Origin: Myxococcaceae bacterium
GTDB taxonomy: Bacteria > Myxococcota > Myxococcia > Myxococcales > Myxococcaceae
Length of the DNA: 64,000 nucleotides
Assembly: GCA_016793095.1 (NCBI GenBank)
Contig: JAEUJQ010000037.1
Span: 12,244 to 76,243 of the forward strand
Direction of reading: 5' to 3'
Each line of letters opens with the position of its first letter. Position 1 is the stretch's first letter. The translations under genes and the position numbers were made by a program. Shown in pieces: positions 6,448 through 60,012 of the stretch. The notes beneath the pieces were generated by a model that saw nothing but the letters and a program-made list of their open reading frames with translations, had not been told where the DNA came from and searched no databases.

Positions 6448-6487
6448 TGGTGGTAACGGAAGCGCGGGGGCGAGTGACGAGGACCTG

Positions 6488-15844: not shown

Positions 15845-15944
15845 AGACTCCGGGAGGTGCGGCGGTGCTGCGGGTGCTGCGGTGTTGCCTGCTGCGGCGA
15901 GCTCCGGAGCGCCGTCACCGACGCCCCGGAGTCGTCCCCGACGC

Positions 15945-16175
15945 TTACGACTTGAGCGCGAGGAGGATGCAGATCACGAGGGCGAAGAACGTCGCGCCTT
16001 CGATGAGACCGGCGGCGACGATCATCGCGCCGCGAATGTCACCACCGGCGGACGGCTGGCGGGCGATGCCCTCCATGGCCGAGCCGGCGAGCCGACCGAT
16101 GCCGAGACCTGCGCCGATGATGCAGAGGCCGGCGCCGATGCCAGCCGAGAGGAATGCCAGAGCGATGGACGTCAT
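15945..16175 (-). CDS. atpE: F0F1 ATP synthase subunit c
   Basis: 76-aa hairpin proteolipid with GAGLGIG and the conserved carboxylate helix. Confidence 0.9.
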   Translation of the reverse strand: MTSIALAFLSAGIGAGLCIIGAGLGIGRLAGSAMEGIARQPSAGGDIRGAMIVAAGLIEGATFFALVICILLALKS

Positions 16176-17355: not shown

Positions 17356-17750
17356 GACCGTGCCTCCACTGCGCTCGCGTGCCGGTTGGCCGCGAGCACG
17401 AACCGCATCTCGACGAGCTGCTGCACCACGTAGCAGGCGAAGAAGGCCAGCACGTAAGCGATGGGCTCGAGCCCGAACCGCTTCATCGCGAAGCCGCCCA
17501 CCAGCACCGCGAACAGCCGCAGCAGCAGCGTGACGACCTGCGCCGACAACAACTGCTTCACCCCAGCGGGCCCCGAGGGGAGCGACGCCGACGTGCGGGC
17601 CTTCTGCGCGAGCGCGAGGACTCCGAACACCGTCGACACCGCCGCCCCGGCGAGGGCCGCCAGCTCGAGCTCGCGGGCCAGGTTGAACGCGAAGACAAGG
17701 CCGGCGGCGAACAGGCCGGCCAGCGTCACCATCACCGCGCTCGACGACAT
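17352..17750 (-). CDS. atpI: ATP synthase protein I
   Basis: About 130-aa multi-TM protein immediately upstream of atpB, overlapping its start by 4 bp. The internal Met start was chosen. Confidence 0.55.
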   Translation of the reverse strand: MSSSAVMVTLAGLFAAGLVFAFNLARELELAALAGAAVSTVFGVLALAQKARTSASLPSGPAGVKQLLSAQVVTLLLRLFAVLVGGFAMKRFGLEPIAYVLAFFACYVVQQLVEMRFVLAANRHASAVEARS

Positions 17751-17758
17751 CGAAGGCT

Positions 17759-18004
17759 TCACTGCTTCTTCTCCAGGAGCTTCAGGGCCTGCCGGATGAA
17801 CGCCACGAACCCCAACGTGCTGCCCAGCAACCCACCCACCACCACGCCGTACTGCTTCGCCGACTCCAGCCACCGGTCCACGCCGTAGCCCACCAGCACG
17901 CCCACCAGCGCCGCGCCGACGAACTGCCACGTCGCGCTCAACCAGGGCGCCGCTGCGCGATATGCCCGCGCGACCGCCGACGCCTGATCTGCCGGTCCAC
18001 TCAA
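17759..18004 (-). CDS. atpZ: AtpZ/ATPase-gene-1-family small membrane protein
   Basis: 81 aa with two TM segments, upstream of atpI. Confidence 0.5.
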   Translation of the reverse strand: MSGPADQASAVARAYRAAAPWLSATWQFVGAALVGVLVGYGVDRWLESAKQYGVVVGGLLGSTLGFVAFIRQALKLLEKKQ

Positions 18005-18671: not shown

Positions 18672-21272
18672 TCAGCGCACGAAGACGGGAGCGCTCGAGA
18701 ACAGCAGCGGAGGCACGCCGCGCTGCGCCTCGCGGTTGTCGCCCCAGCACCAGAGCGCCCCGTCGGCGAGGAGCGCGCAGGTCGTGCCCTCGCGCGCCAC
18801 CAGCTGCGCGACCCGGCCGGGCAACGCCACGGGCACAGGGAGCGCGCTGTGGCTGCCCTCCCGGCCCAGCTCGTTGAACAGGTTGCTGCCCCAGCAGCTC
18901 ACCCCGTTGGAGCCGACGAGCACGCAGCAGTGCGAGCTGCCGCAGGCGAGGTCACGGGCGAAGGGCAGCACACGCGCCAGCGGGCTCGGCGTCATCGGGC
19001 GGCCCGTCGAGACGTCGAGGCCCCAGCACCACGCCTGGCCGGCGACCAGCGCGCAGGCCTGCACCTGCGACATCGCCACCTTCATAGCGGGGCCCGGGAG
19101 CGGCACGGCGGTCTGGCGGAATCGCTCCGTCGTGTCACCGGTGCCGAGCTGGCCGTAGCGGTTGGTGCCGTCGCACACGACGCCGCCGTCACCCACGACC
19201 GAGCAGCGGGCATCGGCGAACCCGCACGCAGCGGGCGCCTCGGCGAGCGGGTTGCAGGTGACGTCGGCGCCGCTCGGCCGGAACGCACAGGGCACGCCCG
19301 TCCGCGAGAGGCCGGCGACGAAGCCCGACCCGCTCACACACGGCAGGAAGCCGACCAGCGGCGGCACCCCGGCGATGCGATGGAGCGCCCCGTCCCAGCA
19401 ATCGGCGCCGCCGTCGGCCTGCACCACGCAGGTGCCGTCGGGCACCGACGCGACTTCCTTCGCCCCGGCGGCGGGCAGCGGCAGAAAGGCGGGCCGCGCC
19501 ACGCCCGCGCCCCAGGTGACGACGCCCCCGTCGCGCAGGACCCCGACCACGGAGCGCACGCCCAGCCCGAAGGCGAGGCGCTCGAGCCTGAGCCCGGGCA
19601 CCTCGGACGGCGACGGCGGCGCGGGGCTCAGGTCGCCCAGCTCGGCGGACCGGTTCGAGCCGATGCACGCGACCTCGTCGGACGTCGTCAGGAAGCACAC
19701 ATGGTCGGTGCCGCCAGCGGCCTTGCGCACCGGAGGCAACCCCGCGTCGTGGGTGACGCAGCTGAGGCCGCCGTCGCTCTCGAAGGCGCAGCGCAGCACG
19801 CCGCCGTCGCGCAGCACCGGCGTCACGTCACCCCACCGGTACGACACCGCGACGTCGTGGACGGTCGCGGGGAGGCGGACGACCGATGCCGGCGGCGGCC
19901 CGGGTTGACCGGCGCCGTCGGTTCGCGTCATGGCGGCCCAGCAGTCGATGCCGTCATCGAGCAGGGCGCAGGTGCCCCGGTCTCCCCGCCTGAGCGCGCG
20001 CACTGGCGCCCGCAGCGCGAACTCCGCGACGCCGACGAAGCCCGCGTCGCCTGGCGGCAGCACGTCGTTCAGGTACCCCCAGCACGCCACACCGCCGTCG
20101 AGCGCGACGCCGCAGAACGAGTTGTCGTCGGCGGTGAGGGAGGTCAGCGCGAGCCCCGTGACAGAGGGCATCCAGGACTGCACCTGACAGCCGACACCCG
20201 CGTCCACGCCGACCCAACACGCACCCGAGCCGTTGTTGACGACGCTGACGACGGTGCCGGCGTCGCGCGGCGGAGCGCTGCCGTCGCCGCACTGAAACCC
20301 GCCCGCCTCGAGGGCGCTGCACGTCGCGACCCCCATCGAGAGGGTGGAGGCTCTTCCCGCGCGGCGCAGGGTGCCAGGTCGCGAGAAGATGTTCCCCGGC
20401 GTGGCGTGCCCCGAGCCCCAGCACCTCAGCGTGCCGGCCCGGGTCAACATGCAGGTCGAGCCGTAGGACGCCGCGAGATCGACGGGTGTACACTCCTCAA
20501 CGGCACCCGGTCGCTGCCGCACGACGCACTGGCCGTTGATGCACACGCGCGCGTCCCGGCACGTCTCCTCGCCACACGCCGTTCCGTCGTCCACCGGTCG
20601 CGTCTGACAACCCATGGCGGGGTCGCAGAAGGCCACCGTGCATGGGTCGGTCACCGCGCACTCGAGCGCGACGTGCACGCACGCCCCCTCGGCCCCGCAG
20701 GCGTCCACGGTGCACGCGTCGCGATCGTCGCAGGCCGCCGAGACCGCGCCGCGGCACTCACCGCTCACGCAGGTGCCGCTCACGAGGCAGGCGTTGCTGC
20801 AGGCGGTGCCGTCAGCCAGCACCGAGGACACGCACGCGCCGCGCTCGAAGTCGAAGCCGTTCGCCTGGCACGCAGTGGGTGAGGCACAGACGGGCACCTC
20901 GAGGCCGACTCCCGTGAGGGCCACCGTCTGCGACGCCGCGCCAGTCAGCGACACCGCGCCCTCGACTGGCCCCGGCGACGACGGTGCGAAGGCGACAAAG
21001 ACCTCGACCGACTCGCCTCCCCCGACGTCGAGCCCGGCCCCGACCTGGAACGGCGCGGCGGTCGCCAGCGTCACCCGCTTCGACGCGCGCCCGGCGTTGG
21101 TGAGCACGAGGGCCCTGGTCGCGGTCCGGCCGACGTACACCGGTCCGAAGTCCAGGCTCGCCGGCTCGACGCGCACCTCGTCAGAGACGTCCGTCACGTC
21201 GGGCCGCGGGCACCGGCAGCCGGCAACGAGCAGCAGAGCGAGCAGCCACCTCACGGCCGCATGACCCTCCAC
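18672..21272 (-). CDS. large Cys-rich lipoprotein with RCC1/BLIP-II-like repeats
   Basis: Lipobox LLLVAGC, a Cys-rich EGF-like region, then repeated C(W/D)GxNxxGQLG motifs (CDGTNRYGQLG, CWGSNLFNELG). Confidence 0.7.
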   Translation of the reverse strand: MEGHAAVRWLLALLLVAGCRCPRPDVTDVSDEVRVEPASLDFGPVYVGRTATRALVLTNAGRASKRVTLATAAPFQVGAGLDVGGGESVEVFVAFAPSSPGPVEGAVSLTGAASQTVALTGVGLEVPVCASPTACQANGFDFERGACVSSVLADGTACSNACLVSGTCVSGECRGAVSAACDDRDACTVDACGAEGACVHVALECAVTDPCTVAFCDPAMGCQTRPVDDGTACGEETCRDARVCINGQCVVRQRPGAVEECTPVDLAASYGSTCMLTRAGTLRCWGSGHATPGNIFSRPGTLRRAGRASTLSMGVATCSALEAGGFQCGDGSAPPRDAGTVVSVVNNGSGACWVGVDAGVGCQVQSWMPSVTGLALTSLTADDNSFCGVALDGGVACWGYLNDVLPPGDAGFVGVAEFALRAPVRALRRGDRGTCALLDDGIDCWAAMTRTDGAGQPGPPPASVVRLPATVHDVAVSYRWGDVTPVLRDGGVLRCAFESDGGLSCVTHDAGLPPVRKAAGGTDHVCFLTTSDEVACIGSNRSAELGDLSPAPPSPSEVPGLRLERLAFGLGVRSVVGVLRDGGVVTWGAGVARPAFLPLPAAGAKEVASVPDGTCVVQADGGADCWDGALHRIAGVPPLVGFLPCVSGSGFVAGLSRTGVPCAFRPSGADVTCNPLAEAPAACGFADARCSVVGDGGVVCDGTNRYGQLGTGDTTERFRQTAVPLPGPAMKVAMSQVQACALVAGQAWCWGLDVSTGRPMTPSPLARVLPFARDLACGSSHCCVLVGSNGVSCWGSNLFNELGREGSHSALPVPVALPGRVAQLVAREGTTCALLADGALWCWGDNREAQRGVPPLLFSSAPVFVR

Positions 21273-21292
21273 GCGCGCTCGACGTGCAACCT

Positions 21293-22018
21293 TCAGGGCG
21301 TGGGCGCCGCGTCGGCGAACGACCAGCCCGCCTGCACGTAGGCGATGATGGCGGCCGAGATCTCATCGACGCCGTGGCGCGCGTTGTTGAAGACGGCGTC
21401 GTACAGCATCGGCGCGGTCGGGTCGGCCTTCAGCATCGACTTGACGAACTCGTCGCGGCGCTGGCTGTTCGCGCGCACGAACTCCTCGGCGTCAGCGCGA
21501 ACGGGCATCTGCAGGCGCTTCGCGATGCTGTCCACCCGCCAGTCGAAGGGCGCGTCCACCCGGAAGTGGAAGCAGTTCTTCATCGCCTGGCACAGCACGG
21601 CGCCACCGCGGCCGACGATGATGGCGTTGCCGCCGCCGGCGATGGACACGATGTGTCGAGCCATGGCGTCGAAGCCGCGCACCTGCTCGTAGTACTCCTT
21701 CGGCGCGAGGCCGAGGCGCTCGAAGCGGCTCGCGGTGAGCCCGAGGTTCTGCATCACCCGCGCCGAGACGCCCTCTTCCTTCTCGACCGCCTCGAGCAGC
21801 GTCTTGTCGTAGATGTTCCAGGGCTCGCCGCTCGCCTGCTCGAGGGCCAGCTTCACCCGCTCGGCGATGGGGAAGCCCTCGCAGCCGAAGGAGCGCGACA
21901 GCGTGACGGTCGCGCGTGGCTTGACGGTGGTCTCCTGGTGCAGGCGCGACTGAATGTCCTCCCAGGCCTGGAGACGAGGCGCGACGCCGGGGACGAGCAC
22001 GTGGAACGGGCGTGACAT
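21293..22018 (-). CDS. cytidylate-kinase-like family protein
   Basis: RATVTLSRSFGCEGFPIAERV... resembles the P-loop-like cytidylate-kinase-like family. Start taken at the internal Met MSRPFHVL. Confidence 0.55.
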   Translation of the reverse strand: MSRPFHVLVPGVAPRLQAWEDIQSRLHQETTVKPRATVTLSRSFGCEGFPIAERVKLALEQASGEPWNIYDKTLLEAVEKEEGVSARVMQNLGLTASRFERLGLAPKEYYEQVRGFDAMARHIVSIAGGGNAIIVGRGGAVLCQAMKNCFHFRVDAPFDWRVDSIAKRLQMPVRADAEEFVRANSQRRDEFVKSMLKADPTAPMLYDAVFNNARHGVDEISAAIIAYVQAGWSFADAAPTP

Positions 22019-38724: not shown

Positions 38725-39471
38725 CTACTCGCCCAGGTACGCCTTGCGAATGTCTTCGCTGGCGAGCAGCTCCTGCCCGGTGCCCTGCATGACGAGCGTG
38801 CCGGTCTCGAGCACGTAGGCCCAGGCCGCGAGCCCGAGCGCGAGGTGCGCGTTCTGCTCGACGAGGAGGATGGAGGTGCCCGTCGCGTTCACGTCACGCA
38901 GGATGCGGAAGATGGTCTGCGTCACCTGCGGCGCGAGGCCCAGCGAGGGCTCGTCGAGGAGCAGCAGCGTCGGCCGCGACATGAGCGCGCGCGAGATGGC
39001 CAGCATCTGCTGCTCTCCGCCCGACAGTGTGCCCGCATACTGGTCGCGGCGCTCCTTCAGCCGAGGGAAGAGGCCGAAGCACTTCTCGAGGTCCTTCGCG
39101 ATGTCGTCGCGATCCCTCCGCAGCCAGGCGCCGAGGTCGAGGTTCTCCTGCACGGTGAGGTTCGGGAAGATGCCGCGGCCCTCGGGCGCGTGGGCCAGGC
39201 CCTTCGCCACCACGAGGTTGGCCTTGAGGCCGGTGATGTCCGCCCCGCCGAGCCTGATGGAGCCCTTCGCGGGCTTCACGAGCCCGCTCACCGCGCGCAG
39301 CGTCGACGTCTTGCCCGCGCCGTTCGCGCCGATGAGGGCCACCACCTCGCCCTTGCCCACCGACAGGCTGATGCCCTTGAGCGCGCCGATGGCGCCGTAG
39401 CTGACGACGAGGTCGTTCACCTCGAGCAGCGCCTCGCGGGGCGGCCGGGTGCCGCGCGCCTCAGGCTGCAT
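38725..39471 (-). CDS. livF: branched-chain amino acid ABC transporter ATP-binding protein LivF
   Basis: GANGAGKTS, LSGGEQQMLAI, LLLLDEPSLGLAP, and a C-terminal AYLGE. Confidence 0.9.
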   Translation of the reverse strand: MQPEARGTRPPREALLEVNDLVVSYGAIGALKGISLSVGKGEVVALIGANGAGKTSTLRAVSGLVKPAKGSIRLGGADITGLKANLVVAKGLAHAPEGRGIFPNLTVQENLDLGAWLRRDRDDIAKDLEKCFGLFPRLKERRDQYAGTLSGGEQQMLAISRALMSRPTLLLLDEPSLGLAPQVTQTIFRILRDVNATGTSILLVEQNAHLALGLAAWAYVLETGTLVMQGTGQELLASEDIRKAYLGE

Positions 39472-40339
39472 GGACGGGTGCCTCTCCGAGGTAGGCCTCG
39501 ACGACCTTCGGGTCCTTCCGCACGCTGGCCGGGTCGCCCACCGCGATGGTCTCGCCGTGGTCGAGCACGGTGAGGTGCTCGCAGATGCCCATCACCAGCT
39601 TCATGTCGTGCTCGATGACGAGGATGCCGAGCGAGAAGCGGTCTCTCAGCTGGCGGATGAGCACCATGAGGTCGGCCTTCTCGCGGGTGTTCATGCCGGC
39701 GGCCGGCTCGTCGAGCAGCAGCACGTTCGGCCTGGTACCGAGGGCGCGCGCCACCTCGAGGCGGCGCTGCTCGCCGTAGGGCAGGCTCGAGGCCAGCTCC
39801 TCGCGACGGTGCGAGAGGCCCATCACGCCGAGCAGCTCGTCGGCCTTCGCGGTGAGCTCGGCCTCCTCTTCGAGGAACCCGCTCGTGCGCAGGAACGCGC
39901 GCCACCAGTCGCGGTAGTTGTTGGTGGCGTCGAGGGCCGCGCCGGCCGCCCGCTGCACCGCGCCGCCCCGCTTGAGCGCCTGCACCCGCGCCGCGTCGAA
40001 CCACGGCTTCGTCGTGGGCAGAATCGCGATGCGCACGTTGTCGAGGGCGGTGAGCTGCTTGAAGAGGCGGATGTTCTGGAACGTGCGCGCCACCCCGAGG
40101 CGGTTGATCTGGAACGGGCGCTTGCCGTTGACGCGCTCCGAGCCGATCAGCACGTCGCCTTCGGTGGGCGGGTAGACGCCGGTGAGGGCGTTGAAGGCCG
40201 TCGTCTTGCCCGCGCCGTTGGGGCCGATGAGGCCCTTCAGGTCGCCGCGCGAGAGGGTGAGCGAGAAGTCGGTGAGCGCCTTCAGCCCGCCGAAGCGGAT
40301 GGAGACCTTCTTCGCCTCGAGCAAGGGGCCGCCCGTCAT
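39461..40339 (-). CDS. livG: branched-chain amino acid ABC transporter ATP-binding protein LivG
   Basis: GPNGAGKTT, LPYGEQRRLEVARAL, LLLDEPAAGMN, IEHDMKLVMGI, AYLGE. Overlaps livF by 11 bp. Confidence 0.9.
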   Translation of the reverse strand: MTGGPLLEAKKVSIRFGGLKALTDFSLTLSRGDLKGLIGPNGAGKTTAFNALTGVYPPTEGDVLIGSERVNGKRPFQINRLGVARTFQNIRLFKQLTALDNVRIAILPTTKPWFDAARVQALKRGGAVQRAAGAALDATNNYRDWWRAFLRTSGFLEEEAELTAKADELLGVMGLSHRREELASSLPYGEQRRLEVARALGTRPNVLLLDEPAAGMNTREKADLMVLIRQLRDRFSLGILVIEHDMKLVMGICEHLTVLDHGETIAVGDPASVRKDPKVVEAYLGEAPVHAA

Positions 40340-40370
40340 CGGGAGCGGACTCCTACACCAGAAGCCGCCC

Positions 40371-41399
40371 TCACAGCCTGCGAAACGCAGCGGCGTCGGC
40401 GCACTCGGAGTGAGACCGGCCGGCGGCGCTCCAGTCGAGGTCCACGTGCGCGGCGGTGCCGGCCTCGAGCGAGAACTCGCCCAGCTTCACCCAGGCGGTG
40501 TCGCCCCACTCGGTGCCGAGGTACTGGCTCACCACGAAGGGCCCGAGCCGCTCGCCGTCGCGCGAGGTGACGAAGTACTCGGCGTGGTCGTCGCGGTTCT
40601 CCGAGCGGTAGAAGCTGACCCACACCTCGTAGCGGCCCGCACGGGTGATGGTGGGCGTCCAGCGCGCGGCCTCGGCGCCGTCGCGGGGCAGGGGCGCGTG
40701 GTTGCTGACGTACCAGTAGTGGCCCTGGTGGCCCTTGTTCGGGTCGGTGGTGTCGAGCCAGCCGGCGCCGGCGCGGGTGAAGGCGCCGTTGGCGCGCACC
40801 ACGTCGTCGACGGTGAAGGCGTCGGCCCCGAGAGGGAAAGGCGGGGCGTTGGGGCCACGGTAGCCGACGCTGACGTAGGTGGGCTTGAAGGACGCCTCGA
40901 GCACCTTCGCCTCGACGTTCGAGAAGGGCCCGCGGCCGGCGGCCGTGACGGTGCGCACCCGGTAGTAGCGCGTCAGGCGCTCCGCCGCGCCGAAGGAGAG
41001 GCTCTGGTGCACGCGGTCGAGACGCGTCGAGGGCGCCGCGACGCGAAACGTGCGCACGCCAGCGTCGAAGGCGGGGTCGGCGCTCTCCTGCACCTCGTAG
41101 CGCAGGGCCACGGCGCCGCGCACCGGGTCCGACGCGCTGGGACGCCAGTCGACGCCGAACGGCTGCGCGCGGAAGACGGGGGCGCCGAGGGGCTCGAGCA
41201 CCGGCGCGCCAGGGAGCGACCCTGCGTCACGCTCCAGAGGACCAGCGTCTGGCTCGTCTTCGTCACCGGCGTCGCCGTCATCGAGCCCGCCCGCGTCGAG
41301 GCCGCCGTCGCGAGGCGGGTCATCGACGTCGAGCGCACCCAGGCCGCAGGCCGACAGGGCGAGGAGGAGCAGCAGCAGTCCACGGAGGAGCGGCGTCAT
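40371..41399 (-). CDS. hypothetical lipoprotein
   Basis: MTPLLRGLLLLLLALSACG lipobox, an Asp/Gly-rich linker, and a C-terminal domain with GHQGHYWYV. Confidence 0.5.
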   Translation of the reverse strand: MTPLLRGLLLLLLALSACGLGALDVDDPPRDGGLDAGGLDDGDAGDEDEPDAGPLERDAGSLPGAPVLEPLGAPVFRAQPFGVDWRPSASDPVRGAVALRYEVQESADPAFDAGVRTFRVAAPSTRLDRVHQSLSFGAAERLTRYYRVRTVTAAGRGPFSNVEAKVLEASFKPTYVSVGYRGPNAPPFPLGADAFTVDDVVRANGAFTRAGAGWLDTTDPNKGHQGHYWYVSNHAPLPRDGAEAARWTPTITRAGRYEVWVSFYRSENRDDHAEYFVTSRDGERLGPFVVSQYLGTEWGDTAWVKLGEFSLEAGTAAHVDLDWSAAGRSHSECADAAAFRRL

Positions 41400-41650
41400 G
41401 TCCAGGTTGTCGCGCCCGCAGCGCGCCTGGTGACGCCCTTCTCGGCGCGCGACAAGCGACTGCCACCCGCCGTGCTCCTCGGGAATCTGAGGGCGGTGTA
41501 ACCCCAGGCCGTCGCTGCTGATTGCGCCAGCGCAAGTCGTGCCCGACGCCGTCGCACGACACACGACAGCCGCTGGACGACTCTGCCGAGGTCCCCGCCC
41601 CCGCGCAGATTCAGTTGCCGACCGCGAGCGACTCTCCCAGTGTCGCGCTG

Positions 41651-42781: not shown

Positions 42782-42991
42782 TCACAGCGCGAGCAGCAGG
42801 CCCGCCGTCAGCAGCCCCACGAAGCCGGTGAAGGCCCAGCGGTGGACCCGCGCGGCGTGGCGCAGCTCCATGAACTCGAGGCCGACGGCGACGGCCTTGA
42901 GCGCCGCGAGCACGAGCGCCAGCCACAGGCGGCCGCTCGCCACGGACGCGCAGGTGAGGCCAACGAGGAGGGCCCAGGTCGCCGCGCGCAT
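42782..42991 (-). CDS. norF: small 2-TM membrane protein, NorF / bacterial CoxIV-like
   Basis: About 70 aa with two hydrophobic helices. Start ATG overlaps the norE stop (ATGA), and it is last in the nor operon. Confidence 0.45.
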   Translation of the reverse strand: MRAATWALLVGLTCASVASGRLWLALVLAALKAVAVGLEFMELRHAARVHRWAFTGFVGLLTAGLLLAL

Positions 42992-43557
42992 CACGCCCTC
43001 ACGAAGAACAACGGGAAGAGGAAGAACCACACCACGTCACACAGGTGCCAGAAGAGGGCCGCGCCGGCATAGGCGGTCTCGACGTCGTCGAAGACGGCGC
43101 GCCGCAGCGAGACGAAGAGCAACAGCGCCACACCCACCACCACGTGGACGAAGTGGAAGCCGGTGGCCAGCAGGTACGCGTCCCAGAAGTCCGAGGAGCC
43201 GAGCCGGTGACCAGCGCCGAGGTGCGCGCTGCAGTCGACGGCCTTCACCACGAGGAACGCGGCGCCCACGCCCGCGGCGGCCAGCAGCCACCGGCGCGTG
43301 TCGTCCAGCCGCGTCTGGCGGAGCCGGTGCACCCCCTGAGCGGCGAGCGCCCCGCTCGTGATGAGCAGCAGCGTCAACGTGAGCCCGAGCGCCGGGCTCA
43401 GCGCCCCCTGGCCGGCCGCGAATTCGTCAGGCTGGGCGCGTCGCACGCCCGCCACCAGCGCGAAGACGATCGCGAAGGTGACGAGCTCGAGGCCGACGAT
43501 GAGCCAGAGCAGAACGCCTCCCGGTGGGTCGTCGAGCGCGCGCGCCTTCATCGTCAT
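42991..43557 (-). CDS. norE: cytochrome oxidase subunit III-like protein NorE
   Basis: 188 aa with 5 TM segments, CoxIII-like (HLGAGHRLG..FHFVHVV). Overlaps norD by 4 bp. Confidence 0.65.
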   Translation of the reverse strand: MTMKARALDDPPGGVLLWLIVGLELVTFAIVFALVAGVRRAQPDEFAAGQGALSPALGLTLTLLLITSGALAAQGVHRLRQTRLDDTRRWLLAAAGVGAAFLVVKAVDCSAHLGAGHRLGSSDFWDAYLLATGFHFVHVVVGVALLLFVSLRRAVFDDVETAYAGAALFWHLCDVVWFFLFPLFFVRA

Positions 43558-45458
43558 CGGCGCAGCGCGGTGCTCGTCACCTTCGCGAGCGCGTTCACCA
43601 GGTCATCGGGCCTCGACACCACCGACGCGCGGCCGTGCCCGAACATCGACGGCAGCCAGGCCCGCGCGGCGGGGTCCACCGCGAGCGCGTGCGTCACCAC
43701 CCCCGCGCCCTGCGCGTCCAGCACGGCCCGGTGCACGTCGGCCACCCCGTAGCGGCCCTCGTAGCGGTCGACGTCGCTGGGCTTGCCGTCCGAGACGAGC
43801 AGCAGCAGCTTCTGCTTCGCCCCGCACGCCAGCAGCTCGCTCGTCGCGTGGCGGATGGCGGGCCCGATGCGCGTGAAGCCGTGCGGCTCGAGGCTGGCGA
43901 GGCGCTGGGCGCCGACGCTCCACGGCTCGGGGAAGCCCTTGACGACGAGGAAGCGGCAGTCGCGGCGCGTCTGGCTGCAGAAGGCCGCCACCGCCACCTC
44001 GTCGAAGAGCCCCTCGAGCGCGTCGCCGAGCGCGAGCACCGCTTCCTTCTCGACGTCGAGCACCCGGCGGTTGGCGACCCACGCGTCGGTGGACAGCGAG
44101 GCGTCGAGCAGCACCAGCACTGCGGTGTCGCGCGAGTGGCGGCGGCGCGTCGCGTACAGGCGGCTCTCGTTGCACTCACCGGCCCGCAGCGCACCGTAGC
44201 GCGCCACCAGCGCGTCGAGGTCGACGTCGGTGCCGGTGCGCTGCCGCAGCTTCCACGCGCGCGAGGCCTCGAGCTGCTCGAAGACGGCCCGCAGGCCCTG
44301 GGTGGTGCGGGTGAGGCGCGCGCGCAGGGCGCTCACCTGGGCGTCCGCGCCGGGCACCACGTCCACCGCGCGGGTCGTCAGCCGGCACCACGCCCGCTTC
44401 CACGAGCGCGTCGTCTCGTCCCACTCGTCGTAGAGCGCCTCGGCCGGGCCGGCGAGCGAGTCGTCCACCTCGCCCACGGCGCCGTCGAGCAGCACGTCAG
44501 CCTGGTAGAGGCTGCCCGCGCGCTGGTGGCTGCGCACCACCTGCCGCAGGTCGAGCTCGTCGAGCGCCTTCTGGTGCGCCGCCAGCTCGTCGTCGCCGTC
44601 GATGCGCTTGCTGCCGCCCTTGTACTCCTCGAGCGTGTGCACCTTCTCGAAGCTGTGCACGAGCGGGTTCTCCTGCAGCTGCTGCTCGGGCTCCTGCACG
44701 CGCTCGGCGCGGGTGGCCTTCTTCTTCTTCAGCTCGGTGCCGCCGGGGAGCGCGCGCTCGTCGTCCGTCGCGGGCTTCACCGAGGCGGGCTTCTGGGGCG
44801 GCGGCAGCAGGGCGCTCCAGAAGGGCACCGGCGGCACGGTGAAGGCCCTCGAGAACCAGCCCCGGCGCGCGGACGGGAGGTCGACCACGCCGCGCTCGAG
44901 CGCACTCCGGGCCCAGCTCCACGCGTCGGCGGCGAGCGTCGCGTCTTCGGTGACACCCAGCGTCCGGCGCACCAGCGCTTCGAGGGCGTGGGCGCGGGCG
45001 TCGTCTGGCGGAGGCGCGCGGCGGGCGCTCGCGGCGGCGCGCTCGAGGGCCGTCAGGGTCTTCTCGAGCGGGGGGAAGGACTCGACGACGGCCGCGCGGA
45101 CGCGAGGCGCGAGCAGGGCGAGGCCGGCGAGCGAGGTCTCGGCCCGGTCGGGCACCAGCCGCGCTGCGGTGACGGCCCAGACGACGTGCACCACGAGGGC
45201 GTCGCGGTTGAGGACCTGCGTCGGGGCGAAGTCGACGACGCGCGGGAGGAACAGCGCCTCTCCAGCGACGGCGGGTGCGTCGTCGGTGAGGGTGACGGTG
45301 ACGGCGCGGCCGGTGAGGAGCCGCGCGAGGGCCTCGAGGCGGGCGCGCTCGGGTTCGACCTCGACGCGCCGGGCGAGCACCTCGTCGGGAGGCGCGCGCG
45401 AGAGGAGCCGGCGGGTGCCGCTCCACGCGACGCCGAAGAGCGCCTCATCCCACGACAT
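43554..45458 (-). CDS. norD: nitric oxide reductase activation protein NorD (VWA domain)
   Basis: 634 aa with a C-terminal von Willebrand A domain (VLVLLDASLS..LLLLVSDGKPSD). Confidence 0.75.
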   Translation of the reverse strand: MSWDEALFGVAWSGTRRLLSRAPPDEVLARRVEVEPERARLEALARLLTGRAVTVTLTDDAPAVAGEALFLPRVVDFAPTQVLNRDALVVHVVWAVTAARLVPDRAETSLAGLALLAPRVRAAVVESFPPLEKTLTALERAAASARRAPPPDDARAHALEALVRRTLGVTEDATLAADAWSWARSALERGVVDLPSARRGWFSRAFTVPPVPFWSALLPPPQKPASVKPATDDERALPGGTELKKKKATRAERVQEPEQQLQENPLVHSFEKVHTLEEYKGGSKRIDGDDELAAHQKALDELDLRQVVRSHQRAGSLYQADVLLDGAVGEVDDSLAGPAEALYDEWDETTRSWKRAWCRLTTRAVDVVPGADAQVSALRARLTRTTQGLRAVFEQLEASRAWKLRQRTGTDVDLDALVARYGALRAGECNESRLYATRRRHSRDTAVLVLLDASLSTDAWVANRRVLDVEKEAVLALGDALEGLFDEVAVAAFCSQTRRDCRFLVVKGFPEPWSVGAQRLASLEPHGFTRIGPAIRHATSELLACGAKQKLLLLVSDGKPSDVDRYEGRYGVADVHRAVLDAQGAGVVTHALAVDPAARAWLPSMFGHGRASVVSRPDDLVNALAKVTSTALRR

Positions 45459-45717
45459 GAGCGCCTCGTCGGTCCTCAGGCAGGGCCGGCCTCACCGCAC
45501 TGCGGCTGTCACGCTGGGTGGGGCGGTGTGCCGACGACAGCCTGCCGTCCACGCCCGTCACTCCGGAGCTCGAGCAGGCAGAGCGAAGGCTCGTCGGCGG
45601 GCAGGCCACCCGTGACGGTCCGCACTTCGAGGAGCGTCGGCGCGACGCCGCCTGCCCGCACGAGCCCGGGCTGGAGGAGGCGAGCCGTCGCGTCGTCGAA
45701 GCGGCCGGTCGCATGAC

Positions 45718-46488
45718 TCAGAAGCTCAAGTCGACGAGGTCCTGCAGGGCGCGCGCGGTGGGCGCGTCGTCGGTCAGCGGCTGCACGAGCGCTGCGCCGC
45801 AGGCCACCCGTGGAGGCAGCCCCGCCGCCATCAGCCGCGCGGCCATCACCAGCAGGCGCGTCGAGACGGTCTCGGCCAGCGCGAGCGCCTCCTGCCCGCG
45901 CACCTTGTTCGCCCACGCCACGAGCCGCTTCGCCAGCTTCACGTCGAGGCCCGTCTCACCGTGCAGCACCTCGACCTCGACGTCCTCGGGCGGGTAGCCG
46001 AACTGGAGCGAGACGAAGCGCTGACGCGTCGACGGCTTCAGCTCCTTGAGCCCGCGCCGGTAGCCGGGGTTGAACGAGGCCACCACCATGAAGCCGGGCG
46101 GCGCGTCGAGCACCTCGTCGTTGCGGTCGAGGTACAGCCTGCGCCGGTGGTCCGTCAGCGGGTGCAGCAGCACCACCACGTCCTCGCGCGCCTCGGCCAC
46201 CTCGTCGAGGTAGAGGATGGCGCCCTGCTTCACCGCGCGCGTCGCGGGGCCGTCCTGCCAGACGGTGTCACCGCCGCGCACCAGCCAGCGCCCCACGAGG
46301 TCGGCCGCGCTCGTCTCGTCGTTGCACGCGACGGTGATGAGCGGGCGCGCGAGTCGCTCGGCCATGAACTCGACGAAGCGCGTCTTGCCACAGCCGGTGG
46401 GGCCCTTGAGCAGCACCGGCAGCCGCTGGGCGAAGGCGCGCTCGAAGACGCTCACCTCATCGCCAACGGGCCGGTACCAGGCAGGCAT
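45718..46488 (-). CDS. norQ: MoxR-type AAA ATPase NorQ/CbbQ
   Basis: LLKGPTGCGKTRFVEF Walker A, ILYLDEV Walker B, and a 256-aa length. Confidence 0.85.
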   Translation of the reverse strand: MPAWYRPVGDEVSVFERAFAQRLPVLLKGPTGCGKTRFVEFMAERLARPLITVACNDETSAADLVGRWLVRGGDTVWQDGPATRAVKQGAILYLDEVAEAREDVVVLLHPLTDHRRRLYLDRNDEVLDAPPGFMVVASFNPGYRRGLKELKPSTRQRFVSLQFGYPPEDVEVEVLHGETGLDVKLAKRLVAWANKVRGQEALALAETVSTRLLVMAARLMAAGLPPRVACGAALVQPLTDDAPTARALQDLVDLSF

Positions 46489-46491
46489 GGC

Positions 46492-47877
46492 TCAGCCCCT
46501 CGCGACGGCGGGCGCTCCCGGGGGCACCTCGGCTGGTGGCTCCGGCGTCGCCTGCTTCAGGGGCGCGTTGGGCATGCCGTAGCGGATGAAGTCCCACACG
46601 AAGGCGATGATGCCACACGAGAAGAGGCTCGCCGCGAGGATGAGGCCCCAGAAGTGCACCTCGAGCTCCTTCTGCACCGTGAGGAACTCCATGCCCGCGC
46701 GCCGCTCGAGCACCACCTGCGAGACCCCGGCGACCGCGAAGGCCAGCGTCATCGCCGTCATGCCGATGTTCGAGGTCCAGAAGGCGAAGCCCGCCGACGC
46801 CTGCTCGTACACCTTGCGGCCGGTGAGCAGCGGCATCGCGTAGGCGATGATGGCGAGCACCAGCATCGCGTAGGCACCCCAGAAGGCCATGTGCCCGTGC
46901 ATCGCGGTCACCAGCGTGCCGTGGGTGTACATGTTCACCTGCGGCAGCGTGTGCGCGAACCCGAGGAAGCCGGCGCCCACGAAGCTCATCAGCGCGCAGC
47001 CGATGGTCCACAGCAGCGCGACCCGGTTCGGGTGCGTACGGCCACCCTTCTTCGCCATCGCGAACGCGTAGATGGCCATGCCCAGGAACGCGAGCGGCTC
47101 GAGCGCGCTGAACACGCCGCCCACCATGAGCCAGTACCGGGGCGTGCCGATGAAGTAGTAGTGGTGGCCGGTGCCCAGCACGCCCGAGAGGAACGTGAAG
47201 CCGACGATGACGTAGAGCCACTTCTCGATGATCTCCCGGTCGACGCCGGTGAGCTTGATGAGCAGGTACGAGAGGATCGCGCCCATGATCAGCTCCCACA
47301 CGCCCTCGACCCACAGGTGCACCACCCACCACCGCCAGAAGCTGTCCACCGTCTGGTTGTCGGTGGGGATCATGCCCGGCAGGTAGAGCAGCGCGGCGGC
47401 GAGCAGGCCGAAGAAGAGCACCATCGAGGTGGTGGACTTCTTCTCGCTCTTCCACACCGTCCACCCGATGTTGCCGATGAAGAGCAGCACGTCGATGACG
47501 ACGAGGAAGTCGAGGGGCCGGGGGATCTCGAGGAACTTGCGGCCCTCCCACCAGTTCAGGTGGAAGCCGATGATGGCCGTGACGCCCGTGACGACGAGGG
47601 CGATGAGCTGCACCCAGGCCAGCTTCGGCCACGCGAGCTCGCGATCGCACTCGTCGGGGATGATCCAGTACGCGGCGCCCATGAAGCCGGCGAGCAGCCA
47701 CATCACCAGCAGGTTGGTGTGCGTCGCGCGGGCGGCGTTGAAGGGAATCCACTCGTGCAGGCCGTCCATGCCCACGCGGGCGAAGCCCATGATGAAGCCG
47801 TAGACGAGCTGCAGGGACAGCAACAGCATGCACGTCGCGAAGAAGCCCCACGCGACCTTCTGGCTCTGGAACTTCAC
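46492..47877 (-). CDS. norB: nitric oxide reductase subunit B (cNOR catalytic subunit)
   Basis: 12-TM haem-copper-oxidase fold with conserved His ligands (GTGHHYY, MHGHMAFWGAY) and a 461-aa length. Confidence 0.9.
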   Translation of the reverse strand: MKFQSQKVAWGFFATCMLLLSLQLVYGFIMGFARVGMDGLHEWIPFNAARATHTNLLVMWLLAGFMGAAYWIIPDECDRELAWPKLAWVQLIALVVTGVTAIIGFHLNWWEGRKFLEIPRPLDFLVVIDVLLFIGNIGWTVWKSEKKSTTSMVLFFGLLAAALLYLPGMIPTDNQTVDSFWRWWVVHLWVEGVWELIMGAILSYLLIKLTGVDREIIEKWLYVIVGFTFLSGVLGTGHHYYFIGTPRYWLMVGGVFSALEPLAFLGMAIYAFAMAKKGGRTHPNRVALLWTIGCALMSFVGAGFLGFAHTLPQVNMYTHGTLVTAMHGHMAFWGAYAMLVLAIIAYAMPLLTGRKVYEQASAGFAFWTSNIGMTAMTLAFAVAGVSQVVLERRAGMEFLTVQKELEVHFWGLILAASLFSCGIIAFVWDFIRYGMPNAPLKQATPEPPAEVPPGAPAVARG

Positions 47878-48575
47878 TGGGCGACCTCCTTCTTGGTCTT
47901 CTGCGACGAGAGGAACGTGACGAGCTCACCGAGCTGCGCGTCGTCGAGCGGCAGCTTCGGCATGGTGGTTCCGGGCTTCACGCCAGCAGGGTCCTTCAGC
48001 CACCGCTCGAGGTACGCGGAGTCGAAGCGGTCACCCACGCCGTCGAGGGCGGGGCCGACGGTGCCTCCTGCTCCACCGAGCGCATGACAGGTGACGCAGA
48101 TCTGCGTGAAGACCTGGGGACGGGTCGGTGCGTTGGCGACCGCCTGCTGCGCCGCGGCCCCCAGCGTGGGCTTCGCGGGGAAGCCGTTGAGGTCCACCTT
48201 CCCCACCCACTCGAAGAAGGCGATCAGGTCTTCGATCTCCTCGTCCTTGAAGTGGTAGTTCGTCATCTTCCGCTCGCCGGGGTACATGGCCTGCGGGTCT
48301 TTGATCTGCGCACGGATGAAGGCTGGCCCACGGCGCTCGTAGACCTTCGTCAGCTCGGGCGCGTAGTAGGCGCCTTCACCAAACAACGTGTGGCAGCCCA
48401 TGCAGTTGTTCCGCTCCCACAGGTCCTTGCCCCGCTTCACCGGCTCGGTGAGCGCTGACGCGCGGGTCCGCTCGGGGATCTGCTGAAACGTGTCCCACGT
48501 GAGCGCGAGGAACACCGAGGCTGTCACCGCCGTGCCTCCCAGGAAGAAGGCCTTCGCTGCCGATTTCGAGAGCAT
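47874..48575 (-). CDS. norC: nitric oxide reductase subunit C with an extra C-terminal cytochrome c domain (di-haem)
   Basis: N-terminal TM anchor and two CXXCH motifs (CMGCH, CVTCH). Overlaps the norB start by 4 bp. Start taken at the internal Met MLSKSA. Confidence 0.8.
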
Positions 48576-48647
48576 GGGCGGCGCCCTCTTCAGGCCGCGT
48601 GCCAGCGCGCCGTCCCCGGTCACCACGCCGCGCCCCTGCGACAATCT

Positions 48648-48672
48648 GTTCCACGTCGTTTCACTCTGGAAC
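48648..48672. promoter_or_regulatory. perfect inverted repeat GTTCCA-N13-TGGAAC in the norC/nirK divergent promoter region
   Basis: Seen directly in the 193-bp intergenic region. Candidate operator, regulator unknown. Confidence 0.2.
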
Positions 48673-48768
48673 CAGAATCAGAAACACTCATGCCGCATCG
48701 GGCGGCCGTTACGTGGTCTTTCGTTTGCAGAGCCGTCGCGTCCACTCGTCGTCTCGAACCGAGGCTCC

Positions 48769-50163
48769 ATGCACGTCATCGTTCTCGCCGCGTTGTTGGG
48801 CGCGTTGCCCGAAGAGAAGGCCGTTCTGACCGACCCGCCGAACGTGCCGCCGCCCATCACGCGCACGACGCCGGCGAAGGTGCTCATCGAGCTCGAGGTG
48901 GTCGAGAAGGTGATGCAGCTGGCCGACGGCGTGGACTACACGTTCTGGACGTTCGGCGGCTCGGTGCCGGGCAAGTTCATCCGCATTCGCGAGGGAGACA
49001 CGGTCGAGTTCTGGCTCGCGAACCACCAGAACAACAAGCTGCCGCACAACATCGACCTGCACGCGGTGACGGGCCCTGGCGGAGGCGCGGCGAGCACCTT
49101 CACGGCGCCGGGCCACAAGAGCCGCTTCACCTTCATGGCGCTCAACCCGGGCCTCTACATCTACCACTGCGCGACGGCGCCGGTCGGCATGCATGTGGCG
49201 AACGGCATGTACGGCCTCATCTACGTACAGCCGAAGAAGCCGCTGCCGAAGGTGGACCGCGAGTACTACGTGGTGCAGGGCGACTTCTACACCGACGCGG
49301 ACTTCGGCCAGAAAGGGCTGCAGCCGTTCTCGATGAAGCGCGCCATCGACGAGCGCCCGTCCTACGTCGTCTTCAACGGCAGCGCGCTCTCGCTGGTCGG
49401 TGAGCGGGCGCTCAAGGGCAAGGTGGGCGAGACGGTGCGCATCTTCGTCGGCAACGGCGGCCCCAACCTCGTCTCGAGCTTCCACGTCATCGGCGAGATC
49501 TTCGACCGCGTGTACTTCGAAGGCGGCACCAAGACGCAGGAGCACGTGCAGACCACGCTCGTGCCCGCGGGCGGCAGCGCCATCGTCGAGTTCAAGCTCG
49601 ACACCGACGGCACCTACATCCTGGTGGACCACTCCATCTTCCGCACCTTCAACAAGGGCTCGCTGGGCATGATGAAGGTCGAGGGCCCCGGCCGGAAGGA
49701 CATCTACTCGGGCAAGGAGGTCGACGAGGTGTACCTGGGCGACGAGTCGGTCGCGACGTCGGTGAAGGCGACCCCCTCGGCCGCCGCGACCCCGGCCGGG
49801 AAGCCCGACGGCAAGGCGCTGTACCTGACGAGCTGCGCGATGTGCCACCAGGCCGAAGGCCAGGGCGTGCCCGGCGCGTTCCCGCCGCTCGCGAAGAGCG
49901 ACTACCTGGCGAACCTCGCGAACGGCAAGCGGGGCGAGCTCGTCGAGATCGTGCTGCGCGGCAAGACGGGCAAGATCACCGTCAACGGCCAGGAGTACAA
50001 CGGCGTGATGACGGCGGTGGCGGGCCTCGACGACGAGAAGCTGGCGACGCTGCTGACGTACGTGACGAGCACCTGGGGCAACAAGGCGCCGGCCTTCACC
50101 ACCGACGAGGTGAAGAAGCTGCGAGAGGCGTTGCCCGAGGTGAAGCCGGCAGGCGGGCACTGA
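48769..50163 (+). CDS. nirK: copper-containing nitrite reductase with C-terminal cytochrome c domain
   Basis: Cupredoxin type-1 and type-2 Cu ligands ([19 protein letters not shown]) and a C-terminal CAMCH haem motif. Confidence 0.9.
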
Positions 50164-50181
50164 GGCAGCGCGGAGGCGGTC

Positions 50182-50919
50182 GTGACGGTCACCGTGTTGC
50201 TCACGTCCGCGCTCCTCGGCCAGCCGATGGTGGCCATCCCCAAGGGGCGGTTCGCGCCGCTCTTCGGGCTCGATGTGGGGCAGACGTCGTTCGTGGTGGG
50301 GGCGTTCCACATCGACCCGCGGCCGGTGACGCGCGCGCAGTTCGCCGCGTTCCTCGAGGCGAACCCGCAGTGGGCGAAGGGCCGGGCGCCGCGCGCGGTC
50401 GCGGACGAGAAGTACCTCGACGGGGTGGGCGCGACGCCGCCGTCGCTGCCGGTGACGCAGGTCTCGTACTTCTCGGCGCGCGCGTACTGCGAGTGGAGGG
50501 GCGGGCGCCTGCCGACGACGCTCGAGTGGGAGTACGTGGCCGCAGCCGACGAGACGCGCCACGACGCCTCCCGCGAGGCCGACTTCGCCCAGCGCATCCT
50601 CGACTGGTACGGCAAGCCCAACCGCCCCGACGACCTCGCCCAGCCCGGCAGCCCGAGGAACGTGTACGGCGTCGAGGCGCTGCACGGGCTCGTCTGGGAG
50701 TGGACCGACGACTTCAACGCGCTCTTCGTCTCGGGGGACAACCGGCAGGACGGTGACAAGAGCGCGAAGCTGATGTGCGGCTCGGGCGCGACCGGCAGCG
50801 CCCGCCGCGAGGACTACGCGGCCTTCATGCGCTACGCGATGCGCTCGAGCCTCACCCCACGCACGACGCTGCCGCGGCTGGGGTTCCGCTGCGCTGCCAC
50901 CGAGAAGAGGTCGCCATGA
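50182..50919 (+). CDS. nirV: formylglycine-generating-enzyme-family protein NirV
   Basis: FGE-sulfatase signature (RGG..LPTTLEWEYVA, GLVWEWTDD, RLGFRC) directly downstream of nirK. Confidence 0.75.
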   Translation: MTVTVLLTSALLGQPMVAIPKGRFAPLFGLDVGQTSFVVGAFHIDPRPVTRAQFAAFLEANPQWAKGRAPRAVADEKYLDGVGATPPSLPVTQVSYFSARAYCEWRGGRLPTTLEWEYVAAADETRHDASREADFAQRILDWYGKPNRPDDLAQPGSPRNVYGVEALHGLVWEWTDDFNALFVSGDNRQDGDKSAKLMCGSGATGSARREDYAAFMRYAMRSSLTPRTTLPRLGFRCAATEKRSP

Positions 50920-51488
50920 GGACGACGCTGGTGTGCTGGCTCGTCTCGCTGTCGGCGATGGCCGCGCCCGACGAGAAGAACGTGCTCGCGCTGAGAACGT
51001 CCTGGGTCGCGGAAGACGGCAAGAAGCAGTCGCTCGAGGCCTTCAAGGGGCGTTGGTACGCGCTCACCTTCATCTACACCTCGTGCGCCGGCAGCTGTCC
51101 GCTCACCACGAAGAAGCTCAAGCGCCTCGACGCGGCCCTCGAGAAGGCTGGCAAGCCGCTGGAGCTCGCGGTGGTGAGCCTCGACCCGACCCACGACACC
51201 CCGGAGCAGGTGAAGCAGTACCGCGCGCGCTACCAGCTCGAGCAGGCCTCGCGCTGGCGCATCCTCGTGGGCGACGACGCGCAGGTGCGCACCCTCACCA
51301 TGCTGCTCGAGTTCAAGTACACGAAGAACCCCGAGTCTGGCGTCATCCTGCACGACAACACCGTCTACCTCGTCGCGCCCGATGGCGCGGTGAAGGCATC
51401 GATGTCGTCGCTGGACGAGCCGATGGAGGACTTCATCGCGAAAGTCCCCGCACGCCCTGCACCAGCAGCCCGAGCGCCTTCTCGATGA
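50916..51488 (+). CDS. SCO1/SenC copper chaperone
   Basis: Signal or TM N-terminus and thioredoxin-like CAGSCP metal-binding motif. Overlaps the nirV stop by 4 bp. Confidence 0.75.
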   Translation: MRTTLVCWLVSLSAMAAPDEKNVLALRTSWVAEDGKKQSLEAFKGRWYALTFIYTSCAGSCPLTTKKLKRLDAALEKAGKPLELAVVSLDPTHDTPEQVKQYRARYQLEQASRWRILVGDDAQVRTLTMLLEFKYTKNPESGVILHDNTVYLVAPDGAVKASMSSLDEPMEDFIAKVPARPAPAARAPSR

Positions 51489-58878: not shown

Positions 58879-59991
<1,113 letters not shown>

Positions 59992-60012
59992 GGAACGATG
60001 TGGCGAACCGCG

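Follow-up and report, generated by a model that had tools for sequence, protein, structure and literature searches.

A norCBQDEF cluster from a Myxococcaceae bacterium with a lysine in the calcium-ligand column of NorB and two haem c motifs in NorC

The DNA described here, a 64-kb window of ~72% GC from the genome of a Myxococcaceae bacterium, carries a gene cluster predicted to encode a cytochrome c-dependent nitric oxide (NO) reductase (cNOR). Six open reading frames (ORFs), norC-norB-norQ-norD-norE-norF, follow one another in this order on the minus strand between positions 42782 and 48575, and the gene of a copper nitrite reductase, nirK, points away from them on the plus strand. With the starts chosen here, all six Nor proteins match letter for letter MBL8920081-MBL8920086 of a metagenome-assembled genome (MAG) deposited at NCBI as ‘Myxococcaceae bacterium’, which confirms the gene models and also the Myxococcota-like host guessed in an initial annotation of the cluster. 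The third-position GC of the six genes ranges from 0.88 to 0.98, which in a window of this composition is typical of real genes. The public MAG labels NorB a “cbb3-type oxidase subunit I” and NorD a “hypothetical protein”, and many relatives are named likewise. Since such names hide the identity of the nor genes, name-based surveys of N2O potential in Myxococcota and predatory bacteria would miss them.

The six families were matched by profile and sequence comparison, and they stand in the order of the Paracoccus cluster, as the initial annotation had stated. Its further claim, that 4-bp start/stop overlaps indicate translational coupling, holds at only two of the five junctions, norC/norB (GTGA) and norD/norE (ATGA). 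At the other three, norE and norF overlap by 1 bp (TGATG), norB and norQ are separated by 3 nt, and a gap of 259 nt lies between norQ and norD. The packing of the operon is partly tight, and the order norCBQDEF is also found in two related loci (L001 and L006).

The catalytic subunit NorB is 461 residues long, lacks a fused N-terminal domain and is accompanied by a separate membrane-anchored haem c subunit, NorC, which is the architecture of a cNOR. Its best solved relatives are the cNORs of Pseudomonas aeruginosa (3o0r_B, E = 3.4e-117, with the alignment beginning at NorB residue 1) and Roseobacter denitrificans (4xyd_A, E = 4e-114). Quinol-dependent NO reductases (qNORs), proteins of 750-800 residues, are matched in their C-terminal part only and at E = 1e-44 (3ayf_A) or weaker, so that 396 bits to cNOR stand against 156 bits to qNOR. 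Six histidines of NorB (H53, H187, H238, H239, H327 and H329) align with H60, H207, H258, H259, H347 and H349 of the P. aeruginosa enzyme, the two ligands of haem b, the one of haem b3 and the three of FeB. These ligands had been singled out beforehand as a point at which the cNOR assignment could fail, and all six are kept. The FeB glutamate and its neighbours, E191, E195 and E260 (P. aeruginosa E211, E215 and E280), are likewise present, as are the equivalents of E138 (NorB E117) and D198; all of these are conserved in 80 of 80 related loci, by which we mean here the 80 loci of a species-level genome collection with the closest NorB (70-92% identity). An active-site ‘E’ signature of NO reductases has been tabulated (PMC8756737, Table A4). 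NorB also contains VDRE, the surface motif at which NorD docks (PMC9976466).

The public name of NorB suggests another reading, in which the protein is subunit I of a cbb3-type oxygen reductase and the cluster an oxidase operon; a Pfam COX1 match of NorB and the COX3-like and COX4-like genes downstream are in line with it. However, the best solved relatives of NorB are cNORs, with E of the order of 1e-117, and the NCBIfam cbb3 and CtaD models reach 15-30 bits against cut-offs of 670-1080. Glu191 (P. aeruginosa E211) at FeB is a signature of cNOR and qNOR and not the cross-linked Tyr of oxygen reductases, the FeB-insertion chaperones NorQ and NorD are encoded alongside, and there is no CcoO, CcoP or CuA subunit. 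An oxidase operon is already contradicted by these comparisons and is, in our view, scarcely conceivable. Judged by its best matches and active-site residues, NorB is clearly predicted to be a cNOR, as first proposed, and the qNOR and cbb3 identities are excluded on the same grounds. An eNOR, sNOR or gNOR identity was ruled out in the same way.

Two features set the enzyme apart. The first, left out of the earlier description of the cluster, is Lys114 of NorB, which occupies the column of Glu135 of P. aeruginosa NorB (E122 in P. denitrificans). Glu135 is the protein carboxylate ligand of the Ca2+ ion bridging the haem b and haem b3 propionates; in qNOR and cbb3 this place is likewise taken by Ca2+, and in other oxidases by two arginines (PMC4816578, PMC3431322). 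Exchange of E122 for Gln or Ala in the P. denitrificans enzyme gives activities of 1-35% (PMC4816578). Of the Ca2+-site feature of cNORs, formed by Glu135 of NorB with G71 and Y73 of NorC, the Glu is missing in our NorB, and the G and Y of NorC are retained. For this position, PMC4816578 tabulates ‘88%E, 9%K’ among cNORs. Our literature search for the Lys form returned only this table entry, which the text does not discuss, and does not prove that no other account exists.

The second feature is found in NorC. Its 233 residues contain two CxxCH motifs, at residues 58 and 160, and comprise a NorC domain followed by a C-terminal class-I cytochrome c domain. NorC thereby departs from the one-haem cNOR subunit of ~150 residues, and the label ‘cytochrome-c subunit’ given to it initially conceals a two-haem fusion. 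Some NorC domain positions below refer to a 256-aa ORF translation, from which 23 is subtracted to obtain the numbering of the 233-aa protein. The N-terminal domain matches 3o0r_C with E = 8e-33 over residues 26-157 of the ORF translation; these correspond to ~3-134 of the protein, a stretch homologous to P. aeruginosa NorC in its entirety, including the haem motif, Met ligand region and the G and Y of the Ca2+ loop. CMGCH, the motif of the canonical NorC haem, is invariant in 53 homologues. The motif GKDLWE aligns to GKLVWE, and K53c, E57c, G71c and Y73c are kept, which means that the residues of periplasmic proton pathway 1 (P. aeruginosa K53c, E57c, D198 and E138) are all present. There is one transmembrane segment (residues 9-27 of the protein), and Pfam Cytochrom_C matches two stretches of NorC.

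In the extra domain, C160, C163, H164, M205 and P206 are invariant in the same 53 homologues, with M205 a candidate Met ligand. The domain scores 60 bits with NCBIfam SoxX (cut-off 61) over residues 166-249 of the ORF translation, where c550 and c551 models match as well, and it resembles small soluble cytochromes. An AlphaFold model of NorC had a predicted local distance difference test (pLDDT) value of 42 from the single sequence and of 75 with the 53-sequence alignment, with confidence still low around both haem sites and the linker. When this model was submitted to Foldseek, its N-domain matched 3o0r_C and 4xyd_B; the remaining matches were weak and consisted of class-I cytochromes c, headed by the cytochrome domain fused to caa3 subunit II (2yev_B). 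A protein search returned 5295 NorC relatives at E <= 1e-10; among the best 120, which are called ‘cytochrome c’ in some records and ‘nitric oxide reductase subunit C’ in others, almost every one is a two-haem form of full length. Our literature search gave no description of a two-haem NorC, which does not prove that there is none.

Both features extend well beyond this genome. The 80 related loci come mostly from Myxococcota MAGs, followed by Bdellovibrionota, Verrucomicrobiota, Planctomycetota, Leptospira and a few others. Lys stands in the E135 column of every one of them, within the motif EGRKFLEIPR, and 75 of the 80 have a two-haem NorC. The two traits also occur together in the cultured Betaproteobacteria Aquabacterium olei and Eleftheria terrae, the NorB of which is ~51% identical to that of the window. 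Conversely, seven Glu-type cNORs (from P. aeruginosa, R. denitrificans, Sinorhizobium meliloti, Roseibium, Azospirillum, Thiothrix and Thermus thermophilus) all have a one-haem NorC. On these comparisons, Lys114 and the two-haem NorC together mark a distinct cNOR lineage, one that has no purified or solved member among the enzymes compared and for which we found no biochemical or structural study. The positions of the genes and of the features discussed here and below are collected in Table 1.

Table 1. Genes and sequence features of the nor/nirK locus, in positions of the 64-kb window
Feature	Position	Strand	Basis or remark
norC (233 aa)	47874-48575, stop included	minus	identical to MBL8920086.1
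norB (461 aa)	46492-47877, stop included	minus	catalytic cNOR subunit (predicted); public record MBL8920085
norQ (256 aa)	45718-46488, stop included	minus	MoxR-class AAA+ ATPase
norD (634 aa)	43554-45458, stop included	minus	VWA-domain partner of NorQ; public record MBL8920083
norE (188 aa)	42991-43557, stop included	minus	oxidase subunit III-like membrane protein
norF (69 aa)	42782-42991, stop included	minus	small oxidase subunit IV-like membrane protein; identical to MBL8920081.1
Lys114 codon (AAG) of norB	47536-47538	minus	alignment columns
First haem c motif CMGCH (NorC residues 58-62)	48390-48404	minus	counterpart of C61-H65 in P. aeruginosa NorC (alignment)
Extra C-terminal cytochrome c domain of NorC (residues ~140-233)	47877-48158	minus	NCBIfam, alignment
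Second haem motif CVTCH of NorC	48084-48098	minus	CxxCH
nirK (464 aa), three-domain copper nitrite reductase with fused C-terminal cytochrome c	48769-50163	plus	TIGR02376
FGE-sulfatase family gene, downstream of nirK	50182-50919	plus	Pfam FGE-sulfatase, E 4e-29
SCO1/SenC copper chaperone-like gene (start uncertain)	50913-51488	plus	Pfam SCO1-SenC, E 1e-22
Divergent norC-nirK intergenic region, 193 bp	48576-48768		holds the conserved motif TGGCACGCGGCCTGAA
norQ-norD spacer, 259 nt, GC-rich	45459-45717	minus	no clear coding frame

The presence of a divergent nirK, also part of the initial annotation, is confirmed by a TIGR02376 score of 350 bits (cut-off 296). Its alignment with RpNiR of Ralstonia pickettii (3ziy_A, E = 4e-187) takes in the full length of the protein, the cytochrome c domain at the C-terminus included, and the copper-ligand motifs HNIDLH, HC, MH, GM and DHS as well as the haem motif CAMCH are visible in the alignment. 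A shared origin of this cytochrome domain and the extra domain of NorC was considered and is not supported (BLASTP E = 0.05). The FGE-sulfatase family gene behind nirK is one that we take to be ‘nirV-like’; 19 of the 80 related loci have it beside a cytochrome-fused nirK. The SCO1-like gene product contains the motif CAGSCP, and no entry of the public protein collection has exactly its chosen start. In 24 of the 80 loci a nirK occurs at most 8 kb from the nor genes; almost every complete copy has the fused cytochrome, with FGE-like and SCO1 genes behind it.

Nucleotide similarity between the window and the closest related locus, L001, covers exactly 42842-51439 (4425-12876 in L001) and stops abruptly at both ends. 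SCO1, FGE, nirK and norCBQDEF therefore behave as one ~8.6-kb unit in different contexts, and the sequences suggest a transferable or rearranged cassette. Within it the placement of norEF is variable: these genes follow norD in L001 and L006, precede norC in L003 and L064, and are absent from the flanks of most related loci, with L004 holding norCBQD alone. The plasmid pTB101 of A. olei (L082, 2271-4629) carries, beside its Lys-type two-haem nor genes, norR, for a sigma-54-dependent NO sensor, and ytfE, for iron-sulfur repair.

Pfam scans of ~48 ORFs across the 64 kb detected no nos, nar or nap families, in agreement with the earlier statement that the window contains no nos genes. This bears on what the cluster is for. 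The same enzyme could serve NO detoxification, or a partial reduction of nitrite to N2O, in an essentially aerobic myxobacterium, and not energy-conserving denitrification. Besides the missing nar, nap and nos, such a role is favoured by the restriction of the similarity with L001 to the nirK-nor cassette and by the variable subsets carried by the relatives, both of which fit a modular, horizontally shuffled trait. The norR and ytfE genes adjoining the nor genes of A. olei are typical NO-stress genes, and their presence hints at a role of the Lys-type lineage in NO stress in some hosts. However, a cNOR combined with a dedicated nitrite reductase makes its own NO, which is a respiratory arrangement, and cNORs are found in denitrifiers, with qNORs used for detoxification (PMC8756737). 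Furthermore, the window spans 64 kb only, and nos and nar may lie elsewhere in the genome. We consider this alternative rather unlikely.

Four accessory genes lie downstream of norB. NorQ is a single AAA+ module (AAA_5, E = 5e-37; CbbQ_C, E = 2e-27 in Pfam) with a Walker A motif (GPTGCGKT, residue 29) and a Walker B motif (LYLDE, residue 92), and it is 55% identical to S. meliloti NorQ; an AAA+ module, the Walker motifs and a CbbQ C-terminal domain are the defining features of NorQ (PMC9976466). [quoted passage not shown] In Paracoccus, the MIDAS motif of NorD is needed for FeB insertion (PMC9976466). NorE has five hydrophobic helices, matches Pfam COX3 (E = 6e-14, 52.9 bits, cut-off 23.8), as does S. 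meliloti NorE, and is 33% identical to the latter (E = 1e-21); a tblastn search of plasmids with NorE gave no match at 1e-5. NorF matches COX4_pro with 37.0 bits (cut-off 28.9), and the S. meliloti gene in the norF position belongs to the same family (33.7 bits). The S. meliloti NorE and NorF comparison sequences were located through NorB. Direct similarity between the two NorF proteins is weak (E = 0.006), so NorF is assigned tentatively, by its family and its place in the cluster. Its 69 residues include two or three hydrophobic stretches, which leaves the two transmembrane segments initially ascribed to it uncertain.

The 259-nt spacer between norQ and norD shortens to 6-18 nt in L001, L003 and L006. 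Its six-frame translation shows no clear coding frame, no similar sequence was found in the window or in 81 compared loci, its fold z-score of -0.02 indicates no unusual RNA stability, and Rfam returned nothing across 40-53 kb beyond a chance snoRNA match at E = 0.11. The Prokaryotic Genome Annotation Pipeline (PGAP) calls no gene in it, the accessions of the flanking proteins being consecutive. A hidden gene was rejected for want of a coding frame and of a PGAP call, and a frameshifted NorD N-terminus because NorD aligns to its relatives from its ATG. The spacer was likewise rejected as a repeat, mobile element or structured RNA, on account of the missing second copy, the Rfam result and the z-score.

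Among the compared loci, a spacer of this kind is found in this genome alone. One could regard it, together with the loss of the Ca2+-ligand Glu, as a lesion in a decaying or non-functional operon, and the reduction of activity to 1-35% in the E122 variants of P. denitrificans (PMC4816578) is compatible with this. However, the six ORFs are intact and have the high third-position GC given above, and NorD is full length with its MIDAS motif. Lys is moreover fixed in 80 of 80 relatives, which span six or more named groups and show NorB identities of 70-92%, and this argues for purifying selection and not for decay. We therefore regard decay as very improbable, and a functional operon as the reading to be preferred.

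The intergenic region between norC and nirK contains a putative promoter element. This 16-nt motif, TGGCACGCGGCCTGAA (TGGCAC-N5-CTGAA), is located at 48589-48604 on the minus strand and precedes the norC ATG by 13 nt. The window has no second copy of it (0 occurrences are expected by chance), and the motif is conserved upstream of norC in L001 (7273-7288), L002 (10-25), L004 (7263-7278) and L005 (1438-1453). In L003, where the order is norEFCBQD and norE comes first, the element sits upstream of norE (6396-6411). Its distance to the first nor gene is 13-16 nt in most of these loci. The element resembles the -24 element of sigma-54 promoters with a poor -12 (GA in place of GC), and we mention the resemblance as a lead only. 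A further upstream motif, TGAAAC-N4-GTGGAACAGAT, is common to the window and L005. Searches for sigma-70 promoters and intrinsic terminators gave nothing meaningful.

Taken together, the data make it very probable that the cluster is a working cNOR operon of this variant architecture. NirK would reduce nitrite to NO in the periplasm by means of its copper and its own fused cytochrome c, and NorCB would catalyse, at the haem b3/FeB site in NorB, the reaction 2 NO + 2 e- + 2 H+ -> N2O + H2O. The AAA+ ATPase NorQ and the VWA protein NorD would be the paired chaperones for FeB insertion, in analogy to Paracoccus (PMC9976466), NorE and NorF would be subunit III/IV-like accessory membrane proteins, and the FGE-like and SCO1 genes probably aid the maturation of NirK. 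For the electrons we infer a route from a donor to haem c2 in the extra domain of NorC, and from there via haem c1 and haem b to haem b3/FeB. The second haem would probably serve as a built-in electron entry or donor-docking module, in the manner of caa3 subunit II or CcoP. In the place of the Ca2+ ion, the ammonium group of Lys114 might bridge the b-haem propionates, as the paired arginines do in A- and B-type oxidases; we give this proposal an even chance. By our own geometric estimate, an extended Lys side chain would reach about as far from the backbone as the Glu carboxylate with its bound Ca2+. The physiological role of such an enzyme would be either nitrite respiration to N2O or NO detoxification.

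A wider interpretation is put forward more tentatively. The enzyme may belong to a deep and widespread cNOR branch that has exchanged the Ca2+ site for a Lys, carries a fifth redox centre on NorC and has a cytochrome-fused NirK as its habitual partner, the whole forming a self-wired nitrite-to-N2O module. Hosts of the branch are Myxococcota, Bdellovibrionota, Verrucomicrobiota, Planctomycetota, Leptospira and some Burkholderiales.

Several points weigh against the main reading, a working cNOR operon of variant architecture, or limit it. In five of the 80 loci (L028, L069, L076, L078 and L079), Lys is combined with a one-haem NorC of ~145 residues, and the two traits are therefore separable. 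None of these five loci encodes the extra cytochrome domain separately within 8 kb, and their position nested inside the two-haem clade suggests that the one-haem form is a secondary loss. In a neighbour-joining tree rooted on Thermus, the Lys-type NorB proteins form one clade, sister to the classical proteobacterial enzymes, but the tree is crude and without bootstrap support, and this single clade is indicative only. The role of the second haem and the absence of Ca2+ are both predictions from sequence, and the retained NorC ligands G71c and Y73c mean that Ca2+ might still be bound by another set of ligands. NorD scores 22.3 bits with Pfam VWA, just under the cut-off of 23.8, and the norQ-norD spacer could uncouple norDEF or lower their expression. 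Finally, the Pfam scans of the window revealed no obvious NO-responsive regulator, in addition to lacking nar, nap and nos, and respiratory denitrification by this organism is thus putative.

Some other genes of the window deserve mention. Two genes for branched-chain-type ABC transporter ATPases are located at 38725-40486 (minus strand), and the lone matching permease is found ~18 kb away at 58879-60012 (minus strand). Lying on either side of the nir/nor cassette, they may represent a split transporter operon or a coincidence. The ORF for ATP synthase subunit a at 16291-17781 (minus strand) extends over 496 codons from the preceding stop, and the domain covers only residues 268-477; either the start lies far downstream or the protein has an unusual N-terminal extension. 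The gene for subunit b follows, at 15308-15973. Proteins with eukaryote-like domains typical of myxobacteria are encoded at 6383-8083 (a RIO1 kinase-domain protein), 18672-21362 (a large RCC1-repeat protein with a Dictyostelium-type repeat) and 40371-41564 (a Golvesin_C-domain protein, two genes from the nor cluster).

In its mere identity the cluster is nothing unusual, a further partial-denitrification module from a MAG that was public before and had been annotated automatically. Its variant architecture is of slightly wider relevance, as it means that the enzymes behind all mechanistic work are unlike a large share of the cNORs in the environment: Lys had earlier been put at 9%, and here the Lys type extends over many phyla outside the Proteobacteria. 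It is still a matter of debate what the Ca2+ site does and which group donates protons near the haem b3 propionates (PMC4816578), and an enzyme with a natural Lys for Glu would be a ready test case. If the deep-branch interpretation is true, these enzymes could have other electron-donor needs, and possibly another proton-donor chemistry, than the textbook cNOR.

Among known systems, the norCBQDEF cluster of P. denitrificans (PMC9976466) has the same six families in the same order, and the Walker A and B, MIDAS and VDRE motifs described for it are kept in the window. Compared with that cluster, by description, and with classical cNORs in general, the window differs in a NorC with two haem c domains, where the classical subunit has 150 residues and one haem, in a Lys for E122 of NorB, and in the 259-nt spacer between norQ and norD. 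Its NorB is ~45-50% identical to those of proteobacterial cNORs. The best solved relative of both subunits is the P. aeruginosa cNOR (3O0R), which shares with them all haem and FeB ligands as well as E138, D198, K53c, E57c, G71c and Y73c. In contrast, E135 is replaced by Lys in the window, the loop before this position is ~18 residues shorter, and NorC has ~95 extra C-terminal residues with the second CxxCH.

A similar combination in cultured organisms is found in annotated plasmid genes of A. olei (pTB101) and E. terrae, where a NorB with Lys at E135 and a NorC with two CxxCH motifs are followed by norQ and norD. Their NorB proteins group with the clade of the window in the neighbour-joining tree, and we found no biochemical study of them. 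They differ from the window in a NorC of 290 residues with a longer linker and in changes at R134 and D198 as well. The flanks examined hold neither nirK nor norEF, and norR and ytfE flank the A. olei cluster.

An extra class-I cytochrome c on the electron-accepting subunit of an enzyme of the haem-copper superfamily is likewise found in subunit II of caa3 oxidase (2YEV chain B) and in CcoP of cbb3 oxidase. By sequence and by fold, 2yev_B is the top match of the NorC C-domain outside NorC itself, at weak scores (E = 6e-6, and a Foldseek E of 0.4). These oxidases belong to another enzyme family and act on another substrate, and the parallel would be a functional one. The NirK of the window is an ordinary member of its family, with no notable difference from RpNiR of R. 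pickettii (3ZIY). In S. meliloti, finally, the arrangement norE-norF-norCBQD comprises the same six families, with a COX4_pro protein again in the norF position, but norEF come first, NorC has one haem, and NorB keeps the Glu.

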